Below are positions 25,626 to 50,376 of a stretch of DNA of 64,000 nucleotides, one piece after another. A program made the position numbers and the translations under genes. The notes beneath the pieces were generated by a model that was not told the origin of the DNA, searched no databases, and saw nothing but the letters and a program-made list of their open reading frames with translations. Source of the DNA: a virus (Duplodnaviria; Caudoviricetes); the IMG/VR virus record IMGVR_UViG_3300028048_000121, positions 1 to 64,000 of that record; one strand, written 5' to 3'. Position 1 is the first letter of the stretch. Each line of letters begins with the position of its first letter.

Positions 25626-25650
25626 TTAATTTTTAGGAGGATGCTTAAAA

Positions 25651-26238: not shown

Positions 26239-26255
26239 TAAGGAGGAAAGAAAAA

Positions 26256-27332
26256 ATGGCATTAACAAGAGATCAACTTATTGAGTTAGCTAGAGCCAAT
26301 GCGAAAGCTTCATTAAATCCTTCTGTTGCTTATTCTTTTGGCGGCGAAAAGCTTTCAGCGGAAGCTTTGAATAAAACATTTATTAAGGAGTTAAATGAAC
26401 TTGGTTCTACTCCTCAGGATTTTAGAGAAAATAAAAATCTTATTTATACATTAATGGAAGTCGGTCTTACTGAGGTTCTTCCTCAGAAGGTAATGCAAGC
26501 TTATGGACAGTTTGCTGATGTTCGTACTTTTGCACAGGGTGTGAAACCTGTTTATAAAGTAAGAATTAGTGAAGCTTCCAAGAAACGTGCTAAGCAGTTT
26601 GTTACTAGAGTCGGTCTTGCTGGTAGATATGAAGTCTTTAAACTTGATGGATATTCACTTGAAGTTCCTACAGCTGCTTATGGCGGAGCTTCTCGAATTG
26701 AATGGGAAGAGCTGCTTGATGGTCGTATGACTATGAATGATTATTACAGCCTTGTTCTTGAAGGAATGGATGAAGCTGTTTATAAAGAAATTGCAAAAGC
26801 ACTTGAAGCATTAATTAATGTTGTTCCTGCACTTCAGAAAGTTGTAAGAAGTGGATTTAGTGAGACACATATGGATCAGCTTCTTTCTATTGCAGATAGT
26901 TATGGTGGAAAGAGTACAATTTATTGTACTTTTGAATTTGCTACTACAATGCTTCCTTCTACAGCAAATAATTATGCTTCCTGGTCTGATGCAATGAAAG
27001 ATGAGATTTGGGCAAATGGATATTTTGCAACGTATAAGGGACATAGAGTAATTATCTTACCACAGTCTTTAGAAGATAATGCTGGTAAGACTGCAACTCG
27101 TGTAAATAAGGTTATTAATCCTCAGTTTGCTTATATTATCCCAACTGGCGCTGAAAAGCCTGTTAAGGTTGCATTTGAGGGCGGTGCTCAGGTGAAATCT
27201 TTTGATAACCGCGATTGGTCTACTGAAATTCAGACTTATCAGAAACTTGGTGTAGCTACTTATTTAGTTAATCCTGGAATTTGTGTCTACCAAAATGAAG
27301 CTTTAAATCCTTATATTGGATTGCTTAACTAA
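26256..27332 (+). CDS. major capsid protein
   Basis: 358 aa, position after the protease, biased codon usage, terminator follows; no TAG. Confidence 0.8.
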   Translation: MALTRDQLIELARANAKASLNPSVAYSFGGEKLSAEALNKTFIKELNELGSTPQDFRENKNLIYTLMEVGLTEVLPQKVMQAYGQFADVRTFAQGVKPVYKVRISEASKKRAKQFVTRVGLAGRYEVFKLDGYSLEVPTAAYGGASRIEWEELLDGRMTMNDYYSLVLEGMDEAVYKEIAKALEALINVVPALQKVVRSGFSETHMDQLLSIADSYGGKSTIYCTFEFATTMLPSTANNYASWSDAMKDEIWANGYFATYKGHRVIILPQSLEDNAGKTATRVNKVINPQFAYIIPTGAEKPVKVAFEGGAQVKSFDNRDWSTEIQTYQKLGVATYLVNPGICVYQNEALNPYIGLLN

Positions 27333-27349
27333 TAGTATTTAAAATTACA

Positions 27350-27387
27350 TAGGGGAGGATTATTAATAATTCTCCCCTTATTTTTTA
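27350..27387 (+). terminator. intrinsic terminator after the major capsid gene
   Basis: AGGGGAG..CTCCCCT hairpin plus T-run. Confidence 0.7.
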
Positions 27388-27415
27388 TAATAGGAGATAA
27401 AAGGAGTTTTAAATT

Positions 27416-28000
27416 ATGGATAAAAATAAAATGGTAAAAGTTATTAATAAATTTAATGGTATTGTTGGATATGAAGTTCCAGAGTTAGGTGTTAATAGAA
27501 CTTTTTATCCTAGAGAAAGTAAAAATATTAGTTATGATGAATTAGAAAAGTTATCATATTTACCTGGCGGTTCTTCTATTTTAAGAAATTATCTTGAAAT
27601 TACTGATGAAGAAGTTATAATGGAATTGTTTAATATAAAGCCTGAACCAGAGTATCATTATTCTGAAGATGATGTAAAAAAATTACTTATAACAGGTTCA
27701 TTAGATCAGTTTTTAGATTGTTTAGATTTTGCTCCTCCAGTGATCATAGATATGATTAAAGATATGGCGGTTACACTTCCGCTTAATGATATGGCAAAAA
27801 GAGAAGCTATAAAAGATAAAATAGGTTTTGATGTAACAAAAGCTATTGAAATTAAAAATACTAAATATGATGGAGAAGTAGAAAATGATGTTGAAGAAAA
27901 AGTTTCAACTTCTGGACGTAGAACAGCTCCAATTAAAAATGATAATTCATCTGCTGCCCCATCTGGACGTAGATATAAACCAATTACTAAAAATGATTAA
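27416..28000 (+). CDS. hypothetical virion-module protein
   Basis: 194-aa ORF with SD. Confidence 0.7.
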   Translation: MDKNKMVKVINKFNGIVGYEVPELGVNRTFYPRESKNISYDELEKLSYLPGGSSILRNYLEITDEEVIMELFNIKPEPEYHYSEDDVKKLLITGSLDQFLDCLDFAPPVIIDMIKDMAVTLPLNDMAKREAIKDKIGFDVTKAIEIKNTKYDGEVENDVEEKVSTSGRRTAPIKNDNSSAAPSGRRYKPITKND

Positions 28001-28021
28001 TTTTTATTAGGGGGTATATAA

Positions 28022-28735
28022 ATGAATACAACTTCATTTTCACTTGTATATGACTCCTTTCTTTCAAAAATTACAGATGATATGTATCTAGAATTAACAG
28101 AATTAGATACATTTAGAATGTTAGAACAACTTTTACTTTCTGCTATTGAAAAATTTGAATTTCCCAGAGTAAATTTATGGGATTATGAATTATTTGAAAT
28201 TGTAGATGAAGTAACTTACAATGGAATAGAAAGCAATTATCAGGATGTTCAAGCGATTATTTATGATGGTGGTTATTTTAATAATAATTTAACTCATGAA
28301 GAAATTAATGTTTTAGCTGTTTACATGATTGTAGAATGGTTAAGTCAACAATTAGCAAGCGTTGAAAATACTCGAATGAAGTATAGTGGTTCTGATTTTA
28401 AATTTACTTCTCAAGCTAATCATATGCAAAAACTTTTGCAAATGAAGAAAGATTATGAAAGAGAAGGTTTTCATCTTCAACGATTATATAAAAGAAGAAT
28501 ACAGGATAAAAGAGGTGTTATGCGTTCAACTTTTGGAGTTATTATGCAGCCTACATTTTATCCATCAGATGATCTTACACAAGATGAATATAGAAATAGA
28601 AATGTTATTAATTATGAAGATTTAATTAATAAACCAAAAATAGAACATCATGAATTAATTAATGATAAAACTTTTGATGAATTAGATATGTCAAGAATTG
28701 ATTTTGATGAGCTTGATAATATCACTTCATCATAA
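28022..28735 (+). CDS. putative head-tail adaptor
   Basis: F..VYD.FLSKITDD..EI..LA..M..EWL..DFK..SQANH; position in module. Confidence 0.6.
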   Translation: MNTTSFSLVYDSFLSKITDDMYLELTELDTFRMLEQLLLSAIEKFEFPRVNLWDYELFEIVDEVTYNGIESNYQDVQAIIYDGGYFNNNLTHEEINVLAVYMIVEWLSQQLASVENTRMKYSGSDFKFTSQANHMQKLLQMKKDYEREGFHLQRLYKRRIQDKRGVMRSTFGVIMQPTFYPSDDLTQDEYRNRNVINYEDLINKPKIEHHELINDKTFDELDMSRIDFDELDNITSS

Positions 28736-28751
28736 AATGGGGGGTGTAAAT

Positions 28752-29162
28752 ATGCCAAAATATTTAGACTCAGATGGTGTTGCTTATTTATGGGGAAAAT
28801 TAAAGAATAATTTAAATAATAAAATGATTTATTATTCTAAAAAGAAAGCTGAATGGGATTTAAATAAAGACCTTATATCTTAGAAAAATGTTCTTTATAT
28901 TTATTCAGATTATAAAAGTGTAAATAAAGATACAAAATAGGTTTTTATTCCTGGATTAAAAATTGGGGATGGAACTACTTATTTAATTGATTTACCTTTT
29001 ATTAATGATACTGCTGGAGGTAGTGAAATTGAATAGATGATATTAGATCATATCAATAATAATATAATTCATATTTCAGCAGAAGAAAGAAACTTTTGGA
29101 ATAATAAATTAAATTTATTATTATAGCCTGAATCATAGACTCTTATTTTTAATAGATATTAA
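28752..29162 (+). CDS. virion fibre-associated protein; 5 TAGs
   Basis: YLD.DG..YLW, KIGDGTT...LPF, HINN..IHIS.EER.FWNNK. Confidence 0.7.
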
Positions 29163-29175
29163 GGAGATTATAAAA

Positions 29176-30249
29176 ATGCCGACACCTTAGATTTCGAAGA
29201 TCACATTACCAAGTGGTCAAACTTATTTTATAAAAGATGCAGAAGCAAGATCTCAAATACAGGCTTTAGTTGGCGGTGATGCAGTTGTTTTTATGGGAGT
29301 TTCTACTACAGAAATTACAGATGGAGGAAGTGAAATTCCAACTATAGGAGGAGAAGTAGTTACTCCAGCTACTGGTCAATTATTCTTTTATGGAACAGAA
29401 TAGTTTGTTTGGGGGCCAGATGGAACTTGGCATGAATTGGGAAGTTTAGATTCTTTAGGAGCTTTAGCTTATAAAGATTCTGCTACTGGCAATTATACTC
29501 CTTCAGGAACTGTTTCTCAACCAACTTTTACTGGTACGAGTAGTACAGTAACAATTACCGCAGAAAATAATAATTCTGGGAATTATCAACCAGCGGGGAC
29601 TATTTCCGGTGGTGCCTTCACTGGTTCTAATACTACTTTTACTGGAAAATTTACCCCTTCGGGAAATATAACTACAACTACAGCAACTACTGAAAATAAA
29701 ACAGCTACAGTGAGTAAAGCAGCTTCTGGCACTGCAACATATACTCCTTAGGGATCTGTTGAAGCACCCACTATTTCAGTAAAAACAGCTGGTTCTACAA
29801 CAACTGTTAAAAATCCAACTTCTGTGACTGTAGCAAAAACTGTTATTGCGGCTGCTCCTGGGACAACAGCTCCTGATAATTCTTTAACTTATTATTCTGT
29901 TAGTAATGAAACTTTAAGTTTATATCAATTAGGATATACAACTGGAGATTCTATTACAACAAATAACGTAACTGTAAAAACTGGAGATGCTGCATATGAA
30001 GCTACCGCACCAACTTTTACAGGAACTGGCGCTAGATTGGTAACTGACAATATAGTCGTGCCAAAAACTTATACTAGTACTTTTAATGGTACAGAGGGGA
30101 ATGTTAGTACAAGTGGTACGCCAAATGGTAGTAATAGTAGTATATCATTTACTGGAACTAAAGTTCAAATTTCTGGTACGACAACTGCAAATGGTACAGT
30201 TTCTCAACCAACATTTACTGGAACACAAGATTCGGTTACTGTATCGTAA
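29176..30249 (+). CDS. Thr/Gly-rich repeat fibre protein; 3 TAGs
   Basis: Read-through joins ORFs 29437 and 29824; repeated PxGTVSQPTFTG-like units. Confidence 0.75.
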
Positions 30250-30264
30250 TAAAGGAGGTATCAC

Positions 30265-30894
30265 ATGGCTGATATTTCCAAAATCATACTCCCAAATGGA
30301 GATGAATACAATTTAAAAGATTCGACCAGTGGTTATATTACTGGGATGACAATACTTTCATATGGAAGTAGTACATGGGCTGATTTTCTTACCGCATATA
30401 ATGCAAAAAAAGTAGTTTATTGTAGAGCATCATCAAACGCAAATCCAGCAACTGGTTCTCAGACAAGACTCGCATTCATGGCGTATGTTAATAATGCTAC
30501 AACTCCTACTGAAGTTGAATTCCAGTATTATAGGTCTATGTCATCTCACAGTGCTACACAGCAGGGCGATCAAGTGTATGTTTATAAACTTACATCAGCA
30601 AACAAGTGGACTGTTACTGTTAGAGAATCATATACAAAAATTATCGCGGGGTCTGGACTTTCAAGTTCATACGCCAATAGTGCTATAACACTTAGCACAA
30701 CTCATACTGTTAACACCGATGTACCTGCAAATGCTCATTTTATGGAAGTTTCTTCAACACAACCTTCAAATCAAGCTACAGGAGATTATTGGTTTGTATT
30801 AGAAGAAAATATAACATCTGATTATCAATAGGTATCTAATACTTATGGGGGTAATACAGCATATATATCAAGTACAGTTTAGGAGGGGGAATAA
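30265..30894 (+). CDS. virion fibre-associated protein; 2 TAGs
   Basis: Read-through ends at a TAA overlapping the next ATG (TAATG); N-terminus paralogous to the 29176 gene. Confidence 0.7.
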
Positions 30895-31133
30895 TGGCTT
30901 TAAACAAAATAATATATAAAGATAGAACCCTCATAGATTTAACTAATACTACAGCTGTAGAATCAGATGTTTTTTCAGGAAAAATTTTCCATAAAGCAGA
31001 TGGAACAACCGCAGTTGGAACTGGCGGTGGATCATTAAAATTATATTTAAAACATTCAGCTGGACAATTTACCCCTCCAGCTGGATGCTCTTAGGTTACA
31101 GTTGGTGAAATTGGTTTTATTATTGAAAAATAA
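30894..31133 (+). CDS. small fibre-associated protein; 1 TAG
   Basis: NKIIY..TLIDLT.TTA..SDV..GK.F..ADG...GT motif. Confidence 0.65.
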
Positions 31134-31153
31134 CTTTTCTGGAGGGTAAAAAT

Positions 31154-31504
31154 GTGATTTTAAAATATAATATAAAAATACTTGATGAAGATATTTCTAA
31201 TAGATTACAAAATCTTATAAATCAAGTATATAAGCTTTTACCAATCAGAGAAGAATAGGAAGATTGGGAAAAGCCTTTAGAAACAATATTGGAATAGCTT
31301 GCTGGGATGCAAAGATTAATGAATAATAATTATTCAGAAATTTTTTTTCCATTATTAAGTAAGCTAGAAGGACTTTATTCATTAATTGATGATGAAGATT
31401 TTTCTTGTTATAGAAGGACAATTTTTGAATGTTTAGGATTGATGAATGAGTTGCAAAAAGTAATAATTTGTAAAGGAGATGTAAAATGTCCTTAGAATTA
31501 TTAA
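31154..31504 (+). CDS. hypothetical neck-region protein; GTG start; TAGs
   Basis: INQVYKLLP.REE..W..PLETI.E*L.G after a GGAGG SD. Confidence 0.6.
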
Positions 31505-32472
31505 ATAAAAGATTGCAATATCAAGGCGGGAATCAAGAACAAAGATTTATCAATGATAAATTAAGAAGTTTAAAAAGAGCTTTATTATATTCCTACCAAG
31601 CTGCCACGGCAATTTTATCAGATGGAAAAGAATTTAGATGTTTAATTAATCCAGATAAAAACAAGCCTGCTTATGATAATAAAATTATTTCTATTCCATA
31701 TAAAGACATTTGTTTAAATGCTCCAAGAATTGGAAAAACTTCATAGGGTGAAATTGATATAAATATAAAAACAGGTGATGTTTTTACTTGGAAATAGACA
31801 AATACACATTGGTTAGTATATTTATAGTATATAGAAGAAGATGCTTATTTTAGGTCAGAAATTCGTAGATGCGATCAAGAAATAAAAATTGGAAATAATT
31901 CTTATTGGGTTTATATTCGTGGTCCTGTTGAAACGTCTATTGAATGGACTCAAAAATCTGGTATTGAATGGAATACTTTAAATTATTCATTGGTTATGTA
32001 CATTACCGCTGATGAAAATACTAATAATTATTTTGAAAGATTTAAAACAGTAAAAGTTTTAGACCCAAGATATAATACAGAAAAAACTTGGCAAGTTGTT
32101 GGCGTAGATCCATATTATGGCGATGGAATTATTCAAGTGTTTTTAGATGAATATTTTGAAAATTCAATAGCTGATGCGGTTTAGACTGAAAATTCTACAA
32201 ATACTAGTGAACAAGATCCTATAGATGCGGCAGCCGCTTACATTGATGGACCCACTACTGTTTAGAGATACAGTAAAGCATATTATGAAATTCATAATGC
32301 TGAAAATGGACATTGGTATTTAAAATGGGATAATAAAGAACAAGATTTAAAGAGTTCCTTAAAAATTATTCCATTGAGTATTACTATTGATAAGGTTGGA
32401 ACTTTTACTTTAATATATAGAGTTGATGGATAGGATGATATTACATTAGATGTAAAAGTCATTGCTATATAA
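31486..32472 (+). CDS. putative head-closure/neck protein; 6 TAGs
   Basis: Read-through joins ORFs 31486 and 31990 and extends to TAA. Confidence 0.65.
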
Positions 32473-32497
32473 GAGATAAAAGGAGTAGACAAAACAT

Positions 32498-33100
32498 ATG
32501 AAAAAAGATTTGGCTTTAAGACCAGTTGATTTTACTTCATCATTTTTATCTTGTGAAAAAGATTTAGAAGAAATTTTACGAAGACTTTTTATAGAAAGTC
32601 AACCATATAGTGATGAGTTAAAAAAATTATTGGTAATTAATACAAAAGATTGTTTAGATAATAAAACAAGTGAAGTATATAAAAATGCAATAAAAGATAT
32701 GAGTTTAGCAAAATTACGAGATGATGGTTATATTAAATTTGAACCTAAAGTAAAAATGCCTGAACATGAAGAAATTAAAAGTTATTTAATTTTTTCTTTT
32801 GACAATTTTACTACTAATCAAAATAATCCAGAATTTCGTGATTGCAATGTTTATATTGATATATTATGTCATACAGATTGTTGGGATCTTGGTAATTTTA
32901 GAATTAGACCTTTAAAGATAGCTGGCTATATTGACGGTATTTTAAATAAGGCTAGACTATCTGGAATAGGAACTTTCCAATTCACGGGGTGTAATGAATT
33001 AGTCCTTGATGAAACTTTATCTGGTTATACTTTATCATATTCTGCAATTCATGGAACAGATGATGTTTTGCCAAGTTCTCATGACTGGATAGAAAGATGA
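32498..33100 (+). CDS. putative tail terminator/neck protein
   Basis: N.EFRDC...DI.CH.D.W....RP..IAG.IDG; position in module. Confidence 0.6.
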   Translation: MKKDLALRPVDFTSSFLSCEKDLEEILRRLFIESQPYSDELKKLLVINTKDCLDNKTSEVYKNAIKDMSLAKLRDDGYIKFEPKVKMPEHEEIKSYLIFSFDNFTTNQNNPEFRDCNVYIDILCHTDCWDLGNFRIRPLKIAGYIDGILNKARLSGIGTFQFTGCNELVLDETLSGYTLSYSAIHGTDDVLPSSHDWIER

Positions 33101-33837
33101 AAAATATTGATGATTTGCTTTTATTATCTGGTAACGATCTTCCTTTTTTAGAAGCAAGATTAACAATTCATCAACCGCGTATAAAAGAAATAGCTTATAT
33201 TACTGAAGGGCATTTTTGGTCTGCATGTGAATTATTAAAATTTGATAAAGAAATTTTACCAGATTAGGACAAAGTTGATTTATTAAATAAGTCAAATTTT
33301 AATATAATAATGATGATGATACAAGAAAAAAGTTTGGAATCTCAACAAGCTCAATTAAATCTTGTATCTCTTCTTGCATTATTATTTCCAACAGATAAAA
33401 TTTTGTTGAATAATAAGACAATTCAATTACAAAATTATTAGACTAATGAAATTAAAGAAATTAATGAAGAAAATTTTGAAAGTTTTAAGGAAATTGTAAT
33501 TAATATGTTTTGTCTTACTAGCAAGGAAAATAAATAGTATAATCCAGATGGTGCTTTAGCTAAGAAGATTGCAAATCAGCTTAAAAAAGGAAGATAGAAA
33601 AAGGCGAAGCTGGCGCCGCAAACTAAAATTTCTATTTTAAGTAGGTATGTATCTATTCTTGCTGTTGGAGAACAAAAAGATATAAATATTTTAATGAATT
33701 ATACTGTTTATCAATTAATGGATGAATTTAACCGATATATGTTAAAAATGCATTATGACGCTTGGGAAAAATATAGAATTGCGGGAGCGACTGGTATGGA
33801 AGATCCTGAAGATTGGTTAAAAGATATCCATGAGTAA
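33097..33837 (+). CDS. hypothetical tail-region protein; 4 TAGs; absent from ORF track
   Basis: ATGA overlap with the upstream stop; SG.D.PF...IHQP.IKEI..YTVYQL.DEF.R..AGA. Confidence 0.7.
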
Positions 33838-33891
33838 AAAATTAAATTGAAACAATAAATATTTTGTACAAAATATAAGGAGGAAATCCAA

Positions 33892-34902
33892 ATGAAATTT
33901 GGTGTACGTGAAATTGCTAATGTAGTGTTCAGAGCCAAAAATGAACAAAGAATTGGTAACCAGACTTTCGCAAAAGGTCAGCCAGTTTTTTATCTGGATA
34001 CCGCAAAAACATCTTCTATGGAAGGTGCTGCAACCACTGTTTATGCTACTGGTGGTCGTGGTAATACTCGTTTAATTGCTTGGGAAGGTGAGAAAACTTT
34101 AACTTTCACAGTTGAAGATGCTCTTCTTTCTCCTATTAGTTTTGCTATGTTATCTGGTGCTGGAGTTATTAAGGGTGCGGCTGATTCCACTAAAGAAGTT
34201 CACTTCCATCAGACAACTAATGCTGTTATTGGTGCTGCTACTGGCGGTGGACTTGAAATTGATTTAAATGACGCTTTGGAGTCTACTGAAAAGATTTGCC
34301 CAACTGCTCCAATTTATATTATGAAACTTGATTCTTATGGTGATTTAACTGGTGAAGTTCTTTCTGGATGGAGTGTTGATAGCACTGGTAAGAAATTAAC
34401 TCATGGTAATGTTGCTGGTCTTACTGGCGCAGTCATGGTTGACTATTATGTACTCAAGAAAGAAGGAACTGTTTCCGAACTTCAGATCGATGCAGAACAC
34501 TTTGGTGGATACTACTATGTAGAAGCAGATACTCTGTTCAGACGTCAGTCTGATGGTAAAGATTTACCTGCTAACCTTACATTCCCGAATGTTAAGATTC
34601 AGTCTAACTTTACTTTCTCTATGGCTTCTACTGGTGATCCAAGTACCTTTACATTTACTATGGACGTGTTCCCTGGATATACATACTTCAATAAGACTAA
34701 TAAAGTTCTTTGTGCTATCCAGGTTGTTGATGATGCAACAGAAGCTAAGTATGAAGCTAAACCTTTGTTCCCACATCCAACTGGCTTCATGATTGAGGAA
34801 TCTATTCCGAGAGTTGAAACCGATGGTACTGTGACCAGATATGGTGATTCTGTCGACGGTGCAGATGATGAATACGAGGGCGATACCCCAACGCAGGGTT
34901 GA
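33892..34902 (+). CDS. major tail (tube) protein
   Basis: KFGVREI..V.F..YATGG.GN.RLI.WEGEK..P.VKIQSNFTF.MA..GDPSTF.F; strong SD; no TAG. Confidence 0.75.
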   Translation: MKFGVREIANVVFRAKNEQRIGNQTFAKGQPVFYLDTAKTSSMEGAATTVYATGGRGNTRLIAWEGEKTLTFTVEDALLSPISFAMLSGAGVIKGAADSTKEVHFHQTTNAVIGAATGGGLEIDLNDALESTEKICPTAPIYIMKLDSYGDLTGEVLSGWSVDSTGKKLTHGNVAGLTGAVMVDYYVLKKEGTVSELQIDAEHFGGYYYVEADTLFRRQSDGKDLPANLTFPNVKIQSNFTFSMASTGDPSTFTFTMDVFPGYTYFNKTNKVLCAIQVVDDATEAKYEAKPLFPHPTGFMIEESIPRVETDGTVTRYGDSVDGADDEYEGDTPTQG

Positions 34903-34922
34903 TGATTAATTAAAATAAAATA

Positions 34923-34956
34923 GGGAGGGTTATTATATAATCCTCCCATTTTTTTA
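34923..34956 (+). terminator. intrinsic terminator after the tail tube gene
   Basis: GGGAGG..CCTCCC plus T-run. Confidence 0.7.
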
Positions 34957-34979
34957 TTAGATTGGTGGTATATAGAAAC

Positions 34980-36212
34980 ATGGAAGCAACTATTTATCAT
35001 GATCATGAAGAAAATAGAAAAGTTATTTTTTCAGGTATTCAATCAAAAATAAAAAATGGATTATAGTAGGATGGATTAAATTATTATACTAATATGACAA
35101 AAGATTAGATAGAAAAAAGATTAATTGATTATAAAACTGGTTTTTTAGATTATAAAAATAAATTATCAAATACAGACAGTATTTAGGAATATTTTAATGC
35201 ATATTAGTATATTTTATAGTTTAGAAAATTTATTTTAGGAAATTTAGGAGAAATTAATTACACTTTTGTTATTAGAACAAATACAAAAGATTTTGTTAAT
35301 ATTCAAACTCTTACATTGGGGTCAGCATCTTTTATAGATTTAATAAAAAATTAGTCTGGAGTTATTACTGGTTTAAAGAGAGATGGAGATAATATTAGAA
35401 TTTCTGGAATTATTCCTAAATTAAGAGAATTAATTGTATCTATACAAGGACAAGGAATGCAAATAAAAATTTCTCAAAATTGTAGCTCTTTCGTTTTAAC
35501 TAATGATAGACTAGGTACTCGACAAGAGTTTTCAAATGGAAAATTATTTAAATCATATATTTAGACTTTACAAAGACATCAAAATGCTGGAAAATGGTAT
35601 GATTTTGAATTAAAAATTAATAAAGATAATTCTACTGAGAGTGAGACTAAAGTTTTTAGTATTGAAATACTAAATGTGCATAATAGTCCTAAATCTTCTA
35701 GTATTTTTTCTGCAATAGGAAAATATTTTACTGATGAGACAATTGCTAAAAAAAATATTGCTAATTTAGCTAATATAAGTATAGATTCTAATATGCCAAA
35801 TGCAGGTAATTTAACTGAATTATATATTCTTGCTAAGGCAAGATTAAATAATGGACAAAATAATTTTTATCATCCTCGTAGACAACCTGTAAAAGGATAG
35901 GATCTTTTTGCATTATACAAATAGGTAAAAAGTAATACTAATCCTTTTTATTCTGGTGGTGACTTTTTAATGAATCAAATAAAAAGTTTTCTTGGTTCCA
36001 ATCCATCTTTAACTAGTTATAAAACAATAAGAAAATCAATTGAGAATTTTTATAATGCATTAAATTCTACAAATACATAGACAATAAAAGAATCTCTATC
36101 AAAATTATTATTACAAAAATCATCTACTTAGAATACTATTACTGAGATTTAGAAAGATTTAAGTAATGACATAGCAAATGCTTTTGAGCAATTTTTTAGT
36201 AAATTACAATAA
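34980..36212 (+). CDS. ~410-aa hypothetical protein with ~13 in-frame TAGs
   Basis: Fills a 1.2-kb gap only if TAG is sense; includes tandem TAG TAG. Confidence 0.6.
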
Positions 36213-36244
36213 TTTTTTATTTAGAGTTAAAAGGAGAATTAAAT

Positions 36245-36799
36245 ATGAAAGTATCTTATGCAAATATGAAGTTAAAAGTTAATACTTCTGTGAAAACTTT
36301 TGATTTTGGCGGGCAGAAGGTAGAAGTCCTTCAGTATCTTCCCGCACAGGATAAGTATGATTTGTTAATGGTAACATTACAAAAGTCAATGGAGAATGGT
36401 GCTTATAATGAATTTAAATTAAATTTATATTTTGAATTAAACTTAGTGTATATGTATACAAATATTTCATTCACTGAAAAGCAAAGAGAAGATGAATTTA
36501 AGTTATATGATACATTAAAAAGTAATGGATTTTATGAACCATTTTTCCAAGCAATAAATGAAGATGAATATAATGAACTTTTTGCACAACTTAATGCTAT
36601 TAAGGAAGCAAGTTCTGCACATAGAATGAGTGCGGGGGCGTTGATTAGTTAGTTAATTGATGACCTACCTGCAAATGCGGAAGCTGCTGCTAAGATTGTT
36701 GAAAACTTTGATCCAAAGCAATTCAAAGCAGTTGTTGATTTTGCCACATATGCAAATGGTGGTAGAAATATTAAAACAAATTTACCAATGAGTGAATAA
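36245..36799 (+). CDS. hypothetical protein (possible tail assembly chaperone); 1 TAG
   Basis: Read-through extends the ORF to a TAA adjacent to the terminator. Confidence 0.65.
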
Positions 36800-36801
36800 A
36801 A

Positions 36802-41453: not shown

Positions 41454-44400
41454 TTACTCCTTTATATTAATTCTTTCATGTTCTAAAGTCATATTTGAAC
41501 CGTTAATATTTACAATTCTATATAATTGATGTGTTGAGGTTGTTTTATAAGTTTTAGCAACAAATGTATCTTCTCTTCTATATCCTGTTACCATAATTTT
41601 GGTTCCTCTAGAAAACCATCCTTTTTCTAATACTTTTTTACTACCATCTGTTTGTACTTCTGAAATTTGACGATTATACATGGCATAATATTCTTTAGTA
41701 AATTTTACATTAACAACACCTTCTGTTGTTAAAACCATAACCGATGCTTTTGTATTATTTTTACTAATAATTGTTCCTGCAATTTTATATAATTTAAAGA
41801 TTGGAATATCTCTACCAGCTCTTTTGAAGAAATAATCTATTTCAGGTTCATATGATAAAGTTGAAAAATTAACAATACCATATTTATGTTTATCAATATT
41901 AGCTAATTCATGTTCATGATAGTAAAAACACAAACTTTCCATTTCCCATGCGGAAATATTTCCAGTCGCATATTTATTCCATGTTTCATTAAATAACAAA
42001 TTGTTATATTGATTTAATACTTCATTTTGATTTTCTTTTAACCAATTTCTTGCTTCATCCATTTCTTTTTGATAGATTTTATCCCATTTTGTTTGGAGAA
42101 TACAAGTAATTCCATTAATAACATCAAGTTCATTTAAATCATAATATTGTGAATAAAAATTTAATGAACCTTCATCAAACACATAATATTTACCAACTTT
42201 TTTATTATCCTTAAGAAATTTATTAAAAACAAATACTTGTTTTTGTTTATTTAATTCTTCTGGTACTAATCCACTTTTTAACAATCCATTAAAGTTCTGT
42301 AAAGTTAATCGTTTCTTTGGATCGCAAATTAATGATATATAATAAGCCATAATTGAATATCTTGGATTTTCTTTACAAATTTTTGATGCCCATTTATTAT
42401 CAATCTTATCAAAGGCTCCTGACTTAATTAAAGATACCATTTGAGTTTTATTTAATGGGCATCTGCTCATAAAATCAATAATACCTTTATATGGGCGGCC
42501 GCTAATAATTTGATCAATTACTGGTCCACCAATTTTATTAACACCTTTTAGTCCAAACAAAATTTCATTATTTATTTCATCTGGTTCAAAACTAAAACCA
42601 GATTTATTAATATCAATTAGAGATACCTTAATTCCTCTTGATGTTATATCACCAATGGCTTTTGCTAATTTGGAATAATCAGTTGATTTATCTTTTGTAT
42701 TACCATCATCGTCATCGTCTTCTTCATCTTCAAGAGATGCGCTATTAACAATGAGACAAGCTGTATTCCAATAAATTGGATTCCAATGAGTTGCAATATA
42801 AATTGTTTGCACTCCGATAAATGAATACGCAAGAGCGTGAATAATTGAGAATGAATACCCCATCTGAGGTCCAACACCACATTCCCAAATATATTTACCA
42901 AGAGCAGGACTTGTTGCCTTATCCAAAATTTGTTGATGCAATTCTGGAATTTTTGCCATTTGTTTTTTACCAACAATCTTGCGTGCGGCGTTTGCTTCTT
43001 TAAGAGAGAAACCACAGATTTTATCATCCATCAACATTCGCATTAACTGTTCCTGAGATGGAGGTACTCCATAAGATTGTTTAAAATATGGTTCAACCGC
43101 AGTTTGCTCTTCTTTTGTTAAACCAGCTCGATCCATTTCTTGATACCATAATGATAAATTATTTTTATAACGAATATATTTTTCCATTGGTGTTTCTGCG
43201 CCTTTTTCTGCGGTCATAAGACGCATCAAACCATTGGCATCCGCCATCTCCAAAATATTCGTTGGTTTAATTTTTTTTGCCGCCTGAGAACCGACATCTG
43301 AATCAAACTGAAATATATTTAATACACTACCCTCTTGTAGAGCTTTCCATATTTCTTTTTTATCTAATGGCAAAACTTCTGGATGAAGATATTTATTATA
43401 TACTTCTCTTAGTGTTAAATTACTATCAATTTTATTATATTTTTGAAGAAGTCTAATAGTTTCTGCAATTTTGTCTTGTACTTCTGTTACAAGAAAATCA
43501 TACTTTGTCATACCACATGCTTCACAATTATGAAGATCCCATTGTGTAATAATTTCACCTTTTGGAGTCTTCATGAAACATCCAAATTCATATGGATCTT
43601 CATCAAACAAAATTACACCTGAAGCATGACTAGAACGTTTATTAACAATTCCCTCTATCGCCATTGCAATATCTAAAAGACCAGGATATTTGTTTATTTC
43701 ATTAATAAAAGCTGTAATGGGTTTTCTATCTTTATCTTTATTACCATAAACGACATCTTTAAGAGGCCAGAGAAATCCTCTTTCACTTGGAATCAATGAT
43801 GATAAGTATTGTGCTGTATCTACATCTATTCCATCTCGATAATCAGTTATCCATCCATCTTCATTTTCATTTGTTGGTCCAGATACAGTATATCCAGATC
43901 CTTGACCCCTATATCCTCGACAAGCTGTAAGAATCGCACTCTTTGTTCCCTCGGTTCCAAAAGTGGCAATAAGAGTACATCCAAGATTTTTCCTTGAAAG
44001 TTCATCAATTTCATTTGAAAAGTTTGCACCACGTTCCTTTTTTATTTCTTGAAGAATTAATGGTCTTTTGCTTGGACACAGATCGATATCGATGTCGCCA
44101 AGTTCTACACGGTCTCGATTGAGATATCTCCAAAATGGCAACTCCCACTGAATAGGGTCAAGCTGAGTAATACCTAAAAGATAATGATTTAATCCTGAAC
44201 ATGATGAACCTCTACCAGCACCAACTGTACTACCACATTCCCAAAATAAGTCAACATAATGTTGAAGAGTAATTGGATAACTAAACATATTAGTTTCAAG
44301 CTTTTTACTAATCGTTTTTTTAATATCTGCTTCTTCTTCAAGTCGAGAAAGATAAATATCATTATCTTTATTAAGTTGTTTTAATTTTATTAAACATTCA

Positions 44401-45428
44401 TTTACCCAATATCTTTCATATTTATCATTTGATATTTTCATATTATATAAATTTGGATATTGAGATAAACTTTTATCTTCATATGGAAGATAATTTTTTA
44501 CTTCTACTTTTGGAATAGTTTGTTTATGTCTAATATCATAATTTTCAATTTTATTATAAATCTCATATGAATTATTTACTAATTCATCATAATCTAATTC
44601 AGATGGAGCAATATTTTCTTTTATATCATTTTCATCTTGAAGATATGTATATTCATAAAATGCATCAACTTCACGTTCTCCACCTTTTGAATTAAGATAT
44701 GCTTTATGAACAAATCTATCTTCTTTTTTAAGATAATGAGCATCTGACCCAAGAACCATTTTACATTTAAATGCGGCAGCCACAGCTTTAAGACGCCTAT
44801 TAACCGCAATTTGTTCGTTTGATTGACCTGGTGCACATTCAATATAGAAGTCTTCATTAAAAAGATTTTTACACCATAAAATAAATTTTACAATATTATT
44901 ATGGGCTTCTGTAATTCCTATTGTATCTTTATGTTTTTCAGCTTTAATAAGATTTAAAACTTGTGATGATACTTCTCCGCCTAAACAAGCTGTTGTTGCA
45001 ATTAAACTATTTGGATATTTATTAACAATTTCCTCAAGTTCATCATAAATAGTTGGAACTCTTTCAAGTCCTCTATCCCAATAGCTGTTCATCCACGCCC
45101 TTGAAGATAATTCTCTTAATGCTCTAAAACCAGTTTTATTTTTTGCAATCAAAATAAAATGATAATATTTTTGACCCATTTCTCTATTTGGCGTTAAATA
45201 TATTTCATTACCTAGTGCAACTTTAAAATCTGGATGTTCTTTTAATATATCTTGAGCATAAAAATTTGCTTGCGGCGCCCCCGATAGACATTCATGATCC
45301 GTAAGTGCCAATCCGCATAAACCTATTTCTATCGCTCTATCTATAAGAGCTGGAATTTTTATTATACTATCAAGCAAACGAATATTTGAGTATTCACTGT
45401 GCGAGTGCGGCTCAAAGCGTTTTATCAT
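41454..45428 (-). CDS. dnaE: DNA polymerase III alpha subunit (family C, with PHP domain)
   Basis: HSHSEYS, LTDH, GRGS, DIDID, H.SGV, K.DFL, YSFS..HA; no TAG in 1324 codons. Confidence 0.93.
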   Translation of the reverse strand: MIKRFEPHSHSEYSNIRLLDSIIKIPALIDRAIEIGLCGLALTDHECLSGAPQANFYAQDILKEHPDFKVALGNEIYLTPNREMGQKYYHFILIAKNKTGFRALRELSSRAWMNSYWDRGLERVPTIYDELEEIVNKYPNSLIATTACLGGEVSSQVLNLIKAEKHKDTIGITEAHNNIVKFILWCKNLFNEDFYIECAPGQSNEQIAVNRRLKAVAAAFKCKMVLGSDAHYLKKEDRFVHKAYLNSKGGEREVDAFYEYTYLQDENDIKENIAPSELDYDELVNNSYEIYNKIENYDIRHKQTIPKVEVKNYLPYEDKSLSQYPNLYNMKISNDKYERYWVNECLIKLKQLNKDNDIYLSRLEEEADIKKTISKKLETNMFSYPITLQHYVDLFWECGSTVGAGRGSSCSGLNHYLLGITQLDPIQWELPFWRYLNRDRVELGDIDIDLCPSKRPLILQEIKKERGANFSNEIDELSRKNLGCTLIATFGTEGTKSAILTACRGYRGQGSGYTVSGPTNENEDGWITDYRDGIDVDTAQYLSSLIPSERGFLWPLKDVVYGNKDKDRKPITAFINEINKYPGLLDIAMAIEGIVNKRSSHASGVILFDEDPYEFGCFMKTPKGEIITQWDLHNCEACGMTKYDFLVTEVQDKIAETIRLLQKYNKIDSNLTLREVYNKYLHPEVLPLDKKEIWKALQEGSVLNIFQFDSDVGSQAAKKIKPTNILEMADANGLMRLMTAEKGAETPMEKYIRYKNNLSLWYQEMDRAGLTKEEQTAVEPYFKQSYGVPPSQEQLMRMLMDDKICGFSLKEANAARKIVGKKQMAKIPELHQQILDKATSPALGKYIWECGVGPQMGYSFSIIHALAYSFIGVQTIYIATHWNPIYWNTACLIVNSASLEDEEDDDDDGNTKDKSTDYSKLAKAIGDITSRGIKVSLIDINKSGFSFEPDEINNEILFGLKGVNKIGGPVIDQIISGRPYKGIIDFMSRCPLNKTQMVSLIKSGAFDKIDNKWASKICKENPRYSIMAYYISLICDPKKRLTLQNFNGLLKSGLVPEELNKQKQVFVFNKFLKDNKKVGKYYVFDEGSLNFYSQYYDLNELDVINGITCILQTKWDKIYQKEMDEARNWLKENQNEVLNQYNNLLFNETWNKYATGNISAWEMESLCFYYHEHELANIDKHKYGIVNFSTLSYEPEIDYFFKRAGRDIPIFKLYKIAGTIISKNNTKASVMVLTTEGVVNVKFTKEYYAMYNRQISEVQTDGSKKVLEKGWFSRGTKIMVTGYRREDTFVAKTYKTTSTHQLYRIVNINGSNMTLEHERINIKE

Positions 45429-45486
45429 TACTCTACTACCTCTTTCATTATATTATATTTATATTATAATATAAATTAATAAAAAA

Positions 45487-45691
45487 GTCAAGCGAGTTGC
45501 CCCGCTTGACTCGAATCAAAAATAAATATTAATTTACGTTGTCCATTGGAGTGTACCTCCTATAAAGTATTAAGGTATTAATTACAAAAATATTAAATTA
45601 CTGCAAATTACCTGTACATTGGACCGTACCTCTCTTTCATAATATTTATTTCTTACAATTATATTATACCAAAAATTTTTTATTTTGTCAA
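45487..45691 (-). ncRNA. self-contained small transcript with two SD-led minigenes (MYR at 45608-45619; MDNVN at 45529-45546), copy 1
   Basis: TTGACA-N17-TATAAT; GAGAGG and GGAGG SDs; terminator GTCAAGCGGG-GCAA-CTCGCTTGAC-T6. Confidence 0.6.
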
Positions 45692-45698
45692 ATTTTAT

Positions 45699-46154
45699 TT
45701 AAATTGGATAATTTAATTCTTTACATTTTATACCATGTGAACAAAAATAATCTTGTAAAGCAACTCTTTCACTACATAAATTATTTGGCGCTTCATAAAC
45801 TATTAAAACAATAGTATCTTTATTAAATTTATTTAAACAAAATTCAAATGCTTTTATCATTTTATCAAAATCAACAGTTTCAAGTAATTGTCGGTATTCT
45901 TTCATTGTAGGACAATTTCCTTGTAAAATGTTTTTATTTTCACAGGGACAATAATGAGTTCCCTGAGACTGGACTATAAGAGGTTCATATCGAAGTCCGC
46001 ATACTATTCCTCTTTTATCTCTATAATATTCTTCGCCTTGAGGCGGGCGGTACCAGTCTGGATCGCGGAGGCAGGTTGAAACAGGTATGAGATTAGGGGT
46101 AAAGTTCCTAATCTGATAAAAATAGCTAGTTTTTATTTTTATCATTATATTCAT
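45699..46154 (-). CDS. DUF488-like protein, copy 1
   Basis: TSYFYQIRNF..VL.VYEAPNNLCSER; highly similar to the 47133 gene. Confidence 0.7.
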   Translation of the reverse strand: MNIMIKIKTSYFYQIRNFTPNLIPVSTCLRDPDWYRPPQGEEYYRDKRGIVCGLRYEPLIVQSQGTHYCPCENKNILQGNCPTMKEYRQLLETVDFDKMIKAFEFCLNKFNKDTIVLIVYEAPNNLCSERVALQDYFCSHGIKCKELNYPI

Positions 46155-46331
46155 TTATCGCTTTCTTTAAAACTTCTTTTGGTATTATTTCATAATTTCT
46201 TTTATTAAACCAATAATATCCAGGTTTATCTTCTACTGTTTCAAAAGTAAAAATTATTTCAATTTCCTTCAATCAATCTTCTTAATTCGCTTTCTTCTAC
46301 TAATCTATATTTTTTCATAAAATCCCCTTAT

Positions 46332-46685
46332 TTAATAATATCCTACTTTATCATACATTTGAGCATATGTTTTTACATGATTATGAGTTAAAACACCTAA
46401 TAATGTTTCTTTATCATCTTCTTCTTTTATATATATACGTGCTGTATCTGTAGTGATAGCAGAACGTCCTTTAGGTCTAGTTAATCGTTTAGCGCAATTC
46501 TCAATTCTTTTCATATCAGTCGTGTTTAACTCCATCCGACCTTCTGTTCCCACTACTACAAAGATAGGTTTTCCATTTTTAAATATAGGTTTGGTGTCTT
46601 TTATTTTACCGCACCATTTAATACTATATTCTTCATGCACGTCTGTTACTATAAGGTGACTCTTTATATTAATTTCTTCTATCAT
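46332..46685 (-). CDS. hypothetical protein
   Basis: 117-aa ORF with SD. Confidence 0.65.
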   Translation of the reverse strand: MIEEINIKSHLIVTDVHEEYSIKWCGKIKDTKPIFKNGKPIFVVVGTEGRMELNTTDMKRIENCAKRLTRPKGRSAITTDTARIYIKEEDDKETLLGVLTHNHVKTYAQMYDKVGYY

Positions 46686-46686
46686 T

Positions 46687-46893
46687 TTATTTCTCCAAAG
46701 AATTAAAAAAATCCATTATATCATTACTTACTTCTCTTGTAATTATGTTCTCACTTCGAGGAGCATCTTTAGATTTGTGATAAGGATGAATTTCCTTCCA
46801 GCATTTTAGCATATGCTTTCTAACTTTATCTTCTATTTTAAATTCTTTACTACAAGTTGGACATACATACATTTTATTATTTACCTCTTTCAT
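46687..46893 (-). CDS. small zinc-finger protein
   Basis: YVCPTC.K.F......H..KC. Confidence 0.6.
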   Translation of the reverse strand: MKEVNNKMYVCPTCSKEFKIEDKVRKHMLKCWKEIHPYHKSKDAPRSENIITREVSNDIMDFFNSLEK

Positions 46894-46932
46894 TTATATT
46901 ATATTTATATTATAATATAATAAAATAAAAAA

Positions 46933-47125
46933 GTCAAGTGGGAAACAATCCCACTTGACATATAAAATAAATATTTTTAAGCTACATTGTCCATTGGAGT
47001 GCCCTCCATAATTCTTGTTGAAGCGTCTACGGGTTACAAATTATTTAGCCCATTGGACCGTACCTCTCTTTCGTAATATTTATTTCTTATAATTATATTA
47101 TATCAAAAATTTTTGAAGTTGTCAA
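46933..47125 (-). ncRNA. self-contained small transcript with two SD-led minigenes (MG at 47045-47053; MDNVA at 46977-46994), copy 2
   Basis: Same architecture as copy 1; terminator GTCAAGTGGGA..TCCCACTTGAC followed by a T-run. Confidence 0.6.
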
Positions 47126-47132
47126 ATTTTAT

Positions 47133-47579
47133 TTAAATTGGATAATTTAATTCTTTACAATTTATACCATGTGAACAAAAATATTCTTGTAGACACTTTC
47201 GTTCACTACATAAATTATTGGGAGCTTCATATACCATTAAAACTATAATATCTTTATTAAATTTATTTAAACAAAATTCAAATGCTTTTATCATTTTGTC
47301 AAAATCAATAGTTTCAAGTAATTGTCTATATTCTTGCATAGTAGGACAGCTACCTTTTAATATTTCTTTTTCTTCGCATGGGCAATAATGCGTTCCCTGA
47401 GATTGGACTATAAGAGGTTCATAGCGGAGACCGCATATTATTCCTTTTTTGTCTATATAATATTCTTTTCCTATTGGCGGTTTAAACCATTTAGGATCTG
47501 ATAGACAAGTTGAAACTGGCACCATATTTTGTTTAAAATTACGAATTTGATAAAAGTATGAAGTATATATTTTTATCAT
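47133..47579 (-). CDS. DUF488-like protein, copy 2
   Basis: Paralog of 45699..46154. Confidence 0.7.
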   Translation of the reverse strand: MIKIYTSYFYQIRNFKQNMVPVSTCLSDPKWFKPPIGKEYYIDKKGIICGLRYEPLIVQSQGTHYCPCEEKEILKGSCPTMQEYRQLLETIDFDKMIKAFEFCLNKFNKDIIVLMVYEAPNNLCSERKCLQEYFCSHGINCKELNYPI

Positions 47580-49689: not shown

Positions 49690-50376
49690 TTATAAATATT
49701 CCCAATGATAACCACCGCTTGTTTTTTGAGCGCCTCTACAGGTTGCGGCTATTCCAGTGTGTGCAATCCCTGTTTTTTGGCTAGCTTCACGAGTTGATTG
49801 AAAAATTTGATTTAATTCAATACATAAACATTTTTTACCATTACTATGTTTACCATAATTAGGGTTGTTTGAGCCAGACATTCTTTTACTATGATTAATT
49901 TTCCATTCTTCATCATGTTTTATTTGTGGAGATGGATGAGTTTTCCAATACTATTTTAAAAATATAGAATGTTCTTTTCTTCTTTTCTAACCTTCTTTAG
50001 TTTGATAATATTCTTTTTTTAACTAACTTTGTTTTGTTTTCCATTCTTTAGATGGATGCCAACCAGAAGTCCCCTAACCACCTTCGGTTAAATTATAATG
50101 ATTTGGATTTTTAAAACTATTATAATGATTTATCCAAAATTTTTCTCTATCAGAAGCAATTAATGAATATTGCTCTTCAGGGATGTTTTCTATAATAGAT
50201 AGTATAAAATTATCCTTTCCATATTTATTAATAGCATGATTTAATGCCGCACATCCTTTTCTATTATATTTTGCCTCAGATAAATGTGTACTCCAACGAT
50301 TTTCAATATTTTTGGCCTTGCCAATATAAATATGATGATTTATTTTATTTTCAATTTTATAAATTCCACAACTCAT
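49690..50376 (-). CDS. GIY-YIG homing endonuclease with NUMOD-type tail; 4 TAGs
   Basis: GIYKI..YIG..YNLTEGG*G, G.NNPNYGK, F.S.REA...I...CRG..KT.GGY.W. Confidence 0.85.

Follow-up and report, generated by a model that had tools for sequence, protein, structure and literature searches.

Predicted small RNAs built from tandem gene-start modules in rumen phages and in Lachnospiraceae

The bar minigenes of phage lambda consist of a Shine-Dalgarno sequence (SD), a start codon, a very short open reading frame (ORF) and a stop codon, and their effect comes through engagement of ribosomes, peptidyl-tRNA or release factors and not through the peptide; their translation leads to peptidyl-tRNA drop-off or tRNA sequestration, which is toxic where peptidyl-tRNA hydrolase is limiting. 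CsrB and RsmZ are RNAs that serve as protein sponges and carry many A(N)GGA motifs, mostly in hairpin loops. Pseudo-ToxI of phage PhiTE is a short phage version of a tandem-repeat antitoxin RNA of the host, followed by a terminator; in type III systems a ToxN/AbiQ-family toxin gene comes next on the same strand. The 5' stabiliser SDs (STAB-SD) of cryIIIA and of phage SP82 are ribosome-binding SD tracts that protect an mRNA without starting a protein. Minigenes, which have also been engineered with 2-8 codons, are reported to cause tRNA sequestration (PMC2490762), CsrA is reported to bind hairpin loops that contain GGA (PMC13443453), and the twoAYGGAY RNA (RF01731), found in gut bacteria including Bacillota, is described as a basal stem bearing a pair of hairpins, each of which shows AYGGAY in its terminal loop (bioRxiv 10.64898/2026.09.22.753630). 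The current work concerns two related units, A and B, on the minus strand of a 64,000-nucleotide stretch of viral DNA (positions 1 to 64,000 of IMG/VR virus record IMGVR_UViG_3300028048_000121, Caudoviricetes), called the window below. Each unit has the form of a small RNA gene with two miniature gene starts. The unit is most similar to the lambda bar minigenes or to a CsrB-type sponge, and it is a member of neither family.

Both units were read directly on the minus strand; the RNA ends given here are predicted from promoter and terminator and are unmapped. Their features, in nucleotides (nt) of the window, are the following.

47125-46925, minus strand: unit A as a whole, from the -35 box to the end of the terminator (~46925)
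47097..47125, minus strand: unit A promoter, with TTGACA at 47125-47120, a 17-nt spacer and TATAAT at 47102-47097
46925..47091, minus strand: predicted RNA of unit A, ~167 nt, type 1; fold z-score -5.46; 133.7 bits with covariance model R1 (described below)
47045..47072, minus strand: unit A module 1, GAAAGAGAGGTACGGTCCA followed by ATG GGC TAA (mini-ORF 47053-47045, peptide MG)
46977..47007, minus strand: unit A module 2, GGAGGGCACTCCA followed by ATG GAC AAT GTA GCT TAA (mini-ORF 46994-46977, peptide MDNVA)
46927..46959, minus strand: unit A terminator, with the stem GTCAAGTGGG..CCCACTTGAC at 46959-46933 and then a T run
46937-46932, minus strand: -35 box TTGACT in the 3' arm of the unit A terminator, belonging to the next promoter (17-nt spacer, TATAAT at 46914-46909)
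45691-45479, minus strand: unit B as a whole, from the -35 box to the end of the terminator (~45479)
45663..45691, minus strand: unit B promoter, with TTGACA at 45691-45686, a 17-nt spacer and TATAAT at 45668-45663
45479..45657, minus strand: predicted RNA of unit B, ~179 nt, type 2, with a longer inter-module spacer; fold z-score -5.10; 102.4 bits with R1
45608..45638, minus strand: unit B module 1, GAAAGAGAGGTACGGTCCA followed by ATG TAC AGG TAA (mini-ORF 45619-45608, peptide MYR)
45529..45560, minus strand: unit B module 2, GGAGGTACACTCCA followed by ATG GAC AAC GTA AAT TAA (mini-ORF 45546-45529, peptide MDNVN)
45481..45510, minus strand: unit B terminator, with the stem at 45510-45487 and then a T run
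45491-45486, minus strand: -35 box TTGACT in the unit B terminator, belonging to the DnaE promoter (matching TATAAT at 45468-45463)

The initial annotation had described in each unit a perfect TTGACA-N17-TATAAT promoter, two SD-ATG blocks with ORFs of 2-5 codons and a strong terminator, and direct reading confirms all of these. Each block follows the module GAGGUA-NN-GUCCA-AUG-G, and the second block of both units reads GGAGG..CTCCA-ATG-GAC-AAY-GTA-xxx-TAA. The module pattern GAGGTANNNTCCAWTG, to which module 2 of unit B is an exact match, has three exact matches in the window, every one within the units; with up to 2 mismatches it has 8, against a shuffle mean of 2.1, and none of 100 shuffles reached 8. 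No ORF of 40 amino acids (aa) or more occurs in either unit interval on either strand, in agreement with the earlier statement that no normal-size ORF is present. When A and B are aligned, conservation is seen in the promoter, in the two blocks, in the arms of the terminator and in the sequence just beyond it, while the spacers have diverged with indels, as had been noted from the pair. The proposed dedicated RNA of ~150 nt is upheld as a predicted small RNA gene of ~165-180 nt bounded by promoter and terminator, an interpretation supported by the sequence of both units and by 25 distinct versions in relatives. The CTTGACT arm of the terminator stands 17 nt before a TATAAT, which indicates a separate promoter for the next gene, one that overlaps the terminator; CTTGAC[TA]-N16-18-TA[TA]AAT is present in 22 of 25 units. 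The same sharing of terminator arm and -35 box (46909-46959 and 45463-45510, minus strand, in the window) is also seen in the loci L024, L040 and L071, which have no unit.

The unit belongs to a family in related phages. An exact 18-mer of block 1 was found in 11 viral contigs, and a blastn search of the 1.8-kb region against named phage records gave no match. The covariance model R1 was built from 9 distinct units and searched against the window and 80 loci fetched via the N-terminus of the DnaE polymerase, whose gene lies downstream of unit B. It gave 29 matches at E<=2.5e-5, namely 27 of the 80 DnaE-anchored loci and the 2 units of the window, and every matching locus has a DnaE at least 79% identical to that of the window. 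Among the 47 loci with a DnaE at most 69% identical there was no credible match (three at E~0.8), and in these distant loci a plain promoter precedes DnaE. The unit is present in 26 of the 31 loci L014-L044; the upstream DNA of L032 and L035 is too short to judge its presence, and L024, L040 and L041 lack it and retain the terminator/promoter or a plain promoter. Its distribution is patchy, in that three relatives with a DnaE 85-90% identical are without it. Two extra pattern scans, each anchored on one block, added few new members, and the non-redundant set comprises 25 units, 23 of which are preceded by the promoter form of unit A.

Four complete or nearly complete genomes have one copy each, always in the same slot in the complete ones, and the window's record has two; most units lie upstream of DnaE. 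The initial annotation had called the unit duplicated. Two copies are indeed present, but they do not come from a recent local duplication: A and B are only 59.6% identical, whereas A is 95.6% identical to the unit of L030 and B has its nearest relative in L036 at 75.7%. By these identities, A and B are best read as two diverged alleles of one cassette brought into one genome, which would explain the differing spacers. Throughout the family the inter-module spacer is diverged (~50-60% identity) with indels, and the modules are nearly invariant. The SD/ATG blocks, at first known from this pair, are therefore kept far beyond it, across 25 distinct units.

All 25 units possess two SD-start-stop ORFs of 2-5 codons, the anatomy of a bar-type minigene (L043 was read separately). 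In both modules the start is ATG in 23 units and TTG in 2, and the same two units switch both. Among 49 parsed stops, 47 are TAA, 2 are TGA and none is TAG. The first ORF gives MG (11), MGM (7), MV (2), MGN (2, one with a TTG start) and, once each, MGK, MCR, MYR, MYN and (TTG)DGN. The second has 5 codons in 22 units, with 3-codon ORFs in the other three, and gives MDNVN (7), MDNVA (6), MDSVA (3), MDRIA (2), (TTG)YN (2) and, once each, MDNVT, MDTVA, MGYVF, MDI and MDISL. The distance from module to module is 47-75 nt. What is conserved is the SD, the spacer, the start and a nearby stop; no peptide is conserved. The idea of signalling pentapeptides is not supported, as both ORF sequences vary across the units. 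Among the properties that the initial annotation had proposed to follow through related phages, the SD/start blocks are kept, the peptide is not, and the structure is plausible.

The module is also used outside the units. Five contigs from unrelated phages, which fall into two diverged lineages, have a 155/156-aa ORF whose start and ribosome-binding site are supplied by the 24-mer GAAAGAGAGGTATAGTCCAATGGA. L174 and L178 were read in detail; the flanks differ between the lineages and the 24-mer is identical. The L174 ORF has NUMOD4 and I-HmuI NUMOD-like domains, and the 19-mer of unit A module 1 plus ATGGA stands at the start in L174 and L178. In these loci (L174, 1500-1990; L178, minus strand), which are phages or prophages, the endonuclease-like ORF is located between a helix-turn-helix gene and a tRNA gene. 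An endonuclease homologue was found in only one of the five phage genomes searched (G002, weak, E 1e-7), and a related-locus search with the endonuclease returned near-identical copies only. A group I intron was considered, the block resembling a core element of such introns and preceding an endonuclease-like gene, and was rejected as L153 and L164 gave no intron match. Moreover, a lone module stands beside the CUA suppressor tRNA in related phages (L149, which equals L173 6327-6360; L141; L379), with the sequence GAAAGAGAGGTAT[AG]GTCCA TTG GAC AAT TAA or the ending TTG GGC TAA.

In bacteria, one genome per prokaryote species was scanned with the query GAGAGGTANNGTCCAATGG, which gave at least 121 matches. 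Of 80 loci fetched from these, 67 have record titles of Clostridia, most of them gut and rumen Lachnospiraceae; the remaining 13, from other phyla and taken as chance or coding matches, were set aside (L185, L192, L199, L210, L214, L216, L218, L229, L236, L240, L246, L256, L260). The carriers include the isolate Oribacterium asaccharolyticum ACB7 (L186). A looser word, GAGGTANNNTCCAATGG, had 31 matches in 25 of 201 sampled genomes of one carrier's family, against 3 for a backwards-read control. In 49 of the 67 loci at least two cores, and as many as 7, fall within 0.8 kb, and their spacings cluster at 50-60 nt (~54), a period that would leave room for one ribosome per module. In typical arrays (L253, L201, L259, L193, L231, L196) a sigma-70-like promoter comes first, followed by modules such as GAAAGAGGUACAAUCCA-AUG-GGA-CGU-UAA; the last module has a fuller SD and a frame like AUG GAU GAA AUA GUA UGA, with a terminator directly after it. 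GTG and TTG start variants occur in L259 and L231. Five genomes were examined and have one array locus each, one of them with a further match on another contig. No constant neighbour of the arrays was found in five contexts; the adjacent genes are unrelated and often convergent.

A subfamily of these arrays is an RNA of ~430 nt in Lachnospiraceae-type genomes (about positions 30-500 as oriented in L191, L197, L200, L204, L212, L217, L222, L238, L247, L262, L189 and L254), which is convergent to a radical-SAM-type gene in 9 of 12 loci. Its first module, GGAGGUACGGACCACC, is invariant and predicted to form a hairpin; two further hairpins show compensatory changes, the loop GACGAGAAA is invariant, and a terminator follows the last module, whose frame has 5 codons. 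This RNA matched no Rfam family. A crude detector placed a terminator-like hairpin after 28 of the 109 distinct modules from bacteria and metagenomes in which an NTG is kept. Of these 28, the mini-ORF has 5 codons in 19 and its stop lies 0-1 nt from the stem in 22, while the stops of the other two frames are scattered. TGA, TAA and TAG (the last in L383) all occur at this position, and the peptides differ (MDEIV, MDGIA, MDSMF, METSS and others).

No described family accounts for these sequences. Rfam 15 (4227 families) gave no credible match in the window: at E<=10 the region 45300-47300 had five chance-level matches to unrelated families, and the whole window had none at gathering thresholds. 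At E<=0.1 none was obtained in 20 bacterial loci, and the loci with lone modules or the endonuclease gave tRNAs only. Guanidine-II (ACGR loops), T-box and PyrR elements, RNase P CR-I, group II domain V and extended pairing with the 16S 3' tail were each compared by consensus sequence and dismissed, as none fits all module variants and none has Rfam backing. Full-text literature searches, subscription journals and supplements excepted, gave no description of the module or of tandem gene-start RNAs in Clostridia. The units and arrays appear to represent an undescribed RNA family that probably engages ribosomes or something that reads gene starts.

The RNAs of A and B are predicted to fold alike, and none of 200 shuffles had as good a minimum energy as either. 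The predicted fold includes an A-U-rich closing helix (AAGAAAUAAAUAU with AUAUUUAUUUU), a helix in which UACG-GUCCA of block 1 pairs with UGGAC-AA-YGUA of block 2, a variable hairpin, and a GGAG/CUCC hairpin. The latter is present in both minimum-energy folds, so that the earlier proposal of a second SD held in such a hairpin agrees with the model. In the 25-unit alignment, which was itself fitted to this model, 90% of cells pair versus 38-49% with slid partners, and 12 pairs show double changes, a number reached in none of 500 shuffles. The variable hairpin and the terminator have compensatory changes, and the outer part of the block-block helix varies with pairing kept (CG13/UG6/UA1 and AU11/GU8/GC2), a modest covariation. 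The double changes of the closing helix all come from one outlier, L043; the GUCCA/UGGAC core is invariant, and L017 and L031, the units with TTG starts, have lost the helix yet keep both modules. As an alternative, each block could form a small hairpin of its own, GUCC-AAU-GGRC. Overall, the fold is a plausible prediction. It also bears on the AAC/AAT difference between the second ORFs, which had been taken as a synonymous clue to coding. The change is present, but the predicted block-block helix explains it equally well without coding, as G-C versus G.U.

Compared with the systems described at the outset, the unit shares with lambda bar a phage-borne SD, start codon, very short ORF and stop. 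Unlike bar, its sites lie in a dedicated promoter-to-terminator RNA gene, its spacer between SD and start is a conserved word of 9-10 nt, its two modules are predicted to pair with each other, and the module is repeated in chromosomal RNA genes of the host group, where it also occurs without a start. With CsrB and RsmZ it has in common a terminator-ended small RNA, a repeated short word resembling a ribosome-binding site, and one locus per genome. However, the word is GAGGUA-NN-GUCCA(AUGG) and not A(N)GGA in a loop, and the last module has a mini-ORF of conserved length; module 1 (GAAAGAGAGGUACGGUCCAAUGGGC) lacks GGA altogether, and the two GGA of module 2 both fall in predicted stems. We know of no Csr-type sponge RNA in Bacillota. 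The twoAYGGAY RNA resembles the unit in its occurrence in gut bacteria including Bacillota and in two elements on a common basal stem, and AUGGAC of module 2 fits AYGGAY; in the unit, though, this AUGGAC makes up the 3' side of a helix, at its foot, and does not lie in a loop, and module 1 has AUGGGC or AUGUAC. RF01731 was not among the matches of 45300-47300 at E<=10. As in pseudo-ToxI and the type III antitoxins, a phage carries a short form of a tandem-repeat RNA of the host with a terminator, but the bacterial arrays have no ToxN/AbiQ-like gene in five contexts, the repeats resemble gene starts, and the genes downstream of the phage units are DnaE or small ORFs. The STAB-SD elements are likewise SD tracts without a protein start, which fits the start-less first modules; they are single elements at mRNA 5' ends, whereas here the modules are repeated in a stand-alone RNA.

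The reading we favour, at a probability of roughly 45%, is that of a decoy or minigene RNA which engages ribosomes, whose peptides are irrelevant, and whose phage copy is a two-module version of an RNA of the host lineage. In this model a consensus sigma-70 promoter would drive an RNA of two tandem gene-start modules, each consisting of a purine-rich SD, a GUA-NN-(G/C)UCCA spacer and a start codon with G behind it, and closing with a stop after 1-4 further codons. An intrinsic terminator would form the end of the RNA, and its 3' arm also provides the -35 box for the promoter of the next gene. We infer from the sequence that the unit is transcribed and that its modules are bound by ribosomes and translated: they would be real landing sites on which 30S or 70S ribosomes run very short cycles of initiation and termination. 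Engagement of the ribosome, rather than the peptide, would matter physiologically. The RNA could then act as a sink or gauge for initiating ribosomes, initiator tRNA, or release or recycling capacity, and ribosome engagement could also protect or remodel the RNA itself. Lachnospiraceae carry terminator-ended RNA genes with 2-7 modules, and thus the phage RNA probably plugs into the function of the host RNA early in infection. Among the three roles first proposed, a bar-like sink for ribosomes or release factors remains the best. It is strengthened by the wider family, namely by the restriction of starts to ATG and TTG, by an ORF length kept without its sequence, and by the use of a block to start a real gene elsewhere. 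A more specific version is tentative at best: Lachnospiraceae and their rumen and gut phages would share an RNA class of tandem, complete initiation sites with 2-5-codon frames that acts as a tunable sink for ribosomes, initiator tRNA or release factors, or as a gauge of translational capacity. Through its last 5-codon frame such an RNA would tie its own termination to ribosome occupancy, and the two-module copy of a TAG-recoded phage, under a consensus early promoter, would reset host translation at the start of infection.

Several observations weigh against the decoy reading. Early in-frame stops are expected anyway in such A+T-rich sequence, and the stop of the second phage ORF lies 17-25 nt from the terminator stem instead of abutting it. 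The predicted block-block helix (GUACG-GUCCA/UGGAC-AA-YGUA) would hide both start codons. R1 matches the bacterial loci only weakly (best E 0.002), so that homology is shown for the module and not for the whole RNA; judged by sequence, phages and bacteria share the module and the array logic but not a full-length RNA. Many modules have no start. The 19-mer was read in 60 distinct metagenome stretches, of which 35 continue with CCA, CCT or CCG and 14 with ATG or TTG (CCA 18, CCT 14, ATG 8, TTG 6, AAG 4, CCG 3, AGG 3, other 4), and among 78 extra bacterial modules 20 have ATG or TTG (ATG 18, TTG 2, CCA 14, AAG 12, CCG 11, ATC 7, other 14). Start-less modules are often first in the array, and Gram-positive 5' stabilisers, which bind ribosomes by an SD only, would suit that position. 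The GUA-NN-GUCCA spacer is conserved far beyond the needs of initiation, which suggests an extra reader, either a protein or an RNA structure. Finally, bovine gut metagenome and metatranscriptome runs contain the unit region, and four of the bovine-gut metatranscriptome runs hold it as assembled contigs, which cannot show transcription, ends, strand or level; they include contigs of 123 nt at 45502-45624 (X8), 112 nt at 45535-45646 (X5) and 726 nt from unit B into DnaE (X3).

The genes around the units are relevant to some of the alternatives and are listed here.

47133..47579, minus strand: 148-aa gene upstream of unit A, DUF488-like as a weak lead only
45699..46154, minus strand: 151-aa paralogue upstream of unit B, by ORF reading
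41454..45428, minus strand: DnaE-type DNA polymerase III alpha (Pfam PHP, DNA_pol3_alpha, finger, HHH_6)

The two upstream paralogues are identical at 122 of 151 residues (81%). The claim that each unit directly follows a DUF488-like gene holds for the position, as both units of the window follow these paralogues, and less so for the label: Pfam, including DUF488 (PF04343), gave 0 families at E<=10 for either paralogue and no domain among the best 120 of 506 homologues, while a feature search of the ESM Atlas placed 18 of 30 matches in the DUF488 / DUF488-N3a set (best score 0.93). The label is a lead only. In 21 other loci with a unit and enough upstream DNA (window units, L023 and L121 excluded, the latter two as too short), the gene ends ~43 nt before the unit in 5, is one small gene away in 5 and is absent from the flank in 11. 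Unit and gene do not always occur together, the question that the initial annotation had put, and in more distant phages the gene abuts DnaE where no unit is present. Of the 27 DnaE-anchored loci with a unit, 20 have DnaE downstream on the same strand, its start ~80 nt from the end of the unit; in the remaining 7 other DNA lies between the two. What follows the unit varies: after unit A it is a zinc-finger-like ORF, and L014, L016, L033 and L036 have other small genes there. In the window, a 19-codon ATG ORF ending in TGA (46126-46323, minus strand) overlaps a 48-aa ORF in the +1 frame, the pair being either two tiny genes or a single frameshifted gene.

The main rival is a sponge for a sequence-specific translational regulator, in the manner of CsrB and RsmZ. 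Each module would be a binding site, the mini-ORFs would be unused target mimicry, mRNA starts would carry the site, and the 2-7 copies in the host RNA and the two in the phage RNA would titrate the regulator. This we hold to be unlikely on balance, although it explains the spacer and the start-less modules better than the decoy reading does. The spacer does not vary, and the 24-mer that also begins a real gene has it unchanged; start-less modules are common and conserved, as GGAGGUACGGACCACC of the ~430-nt RNA illustrates; and the tandem-repeat, terminator-ended, single-locus architecture resembles known protein sponges. It explains less well the restriction of the phage starts to ATG and TTG, and it leaves aside why the last mini-ORF has 5 codons and a stop of any type at the terminator. 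Furthermore, no candidate protein was found, the neighbour genes differ between loci, and CsrA itself is an unlikely partner because the best-conserved phage block has no GGA. Part of the same geometry would suit an attenuator in cis, in which read-through into DnaE or other early genes is gated by translation of the mini-ORFs or by a ligand or protein bound to the fold: the unit commonly lies just before DnaE, and the last stop in bacteria abuts the stem as in ribosome-mediated attenuation. That explanation appears improbable, since the downstream gene has a promoter of its own in 22 of 25 units, kept in the unit-less L024, L040 and L071, and varies among loci. The gene that follows in the bacterial loci is frequently convergent, the phage stops are away from the stem, and a look at the pairing showed no antiterminator.

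If instead the function lay in the fold, the RNA would be a structured riboregulator acting in trans and the SD-ATG look would be incidental. The z-scores near -5 of both units, the pairing of 90% of cells, the 12 double-change pairs and the compensatory changes in terminator and variable hairpin are consistent with this; but the alignment was fitted to the model, the closing helix draws its double changes from L043 alone, and the core helix is invariant. L017 and L031 keep both modules without the helix, and single modules stand alone in other contexts, which indicates that the conserved entity is the module and not the two-block helix. We regard such a riboregulator as a poor prospect. The lone modules, here as orphans in the tRNA arrays of related phages, could on the other hand be seen as debris, together with the patchy presence of the unit, its absence from three close relatives, and the block that is a real endonuclease-like gene start elsewhere. 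The unit would then be a non-functional remnant, made of leftover gene starts (for example of lost homing endonucleases) and a resident terminator, and spread by recombination. This is highly improbable, as 25 versions keep modules, promoter and terminator despite a spacer at ~50-60% identity, complete genomes have one copy in the same slot, and the bacterial family is chromosomal and syntenic. Scarcely credible, lastly, are the two remaining proposals of the initial annotation, an RNA partner or antitoxin of the DUF488-like protein and a source of a signalling pentapeptide. For them speak the paralogues directly before both window units and the form M-D-x-(V/I)-x of the second ORF in 20 of 25 units. 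Against them, the gene stands directly beside the unit in no more than 5 of 21 other loci, occurs without a unit in distant phages and is missing beside the bacterial arrays; every position but Met varies, three units have 3-codon ORFs, and five residues contain no export or processing signal. The association of unit and DUF488-like gene is, from the loci compared, apparently shared synteny and not partnership.

The window is part of an 81.7-kb record with an estimated completeness of 61%, and its relatives are bovine rumen phages of 133-144 kb (~135 kb), some with terminal repeats. In much of the window phage TAG appears to be a sense codon. When it is so treated, the total length of ORFs of at least 150 aa rises from 10,529 aa to 16,086 aa in the window, many plus-strand ORFs are lengthened, and up to 13 in-frame TAGs fall in one long ORF; a tRNA with anticodon CUA is present within a 24-tRNA array of a relative. 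The premise of a stop-recoding phage, to which the initial annotation had linked the sink, is reasonable in view of this lengthening and of the CUA tRNA in relatives; no tRNA or tmRNA was found in the window itself. Long TAG-containing ORFs lie at 16898-36800 (plus strand) and 49690-50375 (minus strand). A GIY-YIG homing-endonuclease gene has 4 in-frame TAG, and DnaE and the helicase have none. In L039 (2501-2530), codon 6 of DnaE is an in-frame TAG where other phages have GAG, which suggests that recoding extends to early genes in that phage. The 24-tRNA array is located in L173 (G004:C1:78000-92000), a related phage, and its tRNAs are separated by G+C-richer non-coding spacers of 350-900 nt that matched no Rfam family; these long spacers may represent additional structured RNAs.

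If the modules are engaged by ribosomes, the family would provide a natural and widespread RNA whose job is to be initiated on and not to encode, an idea that so far rests mainly on lambda bar and on engineered minigenes. It would further connect an RNA of phages with a host RNA of the Lachnospiraceae, a dominant and genetically little-studied group of gut and rumen. Three objects are available for testing: the 165-nt phage RNA, the multi-module host RNAs, and the ~430-nt host RNA with covarying hairpins. Since the module word can be searched directly, decoy gene starts in bacteria and phages are now open to experiment.

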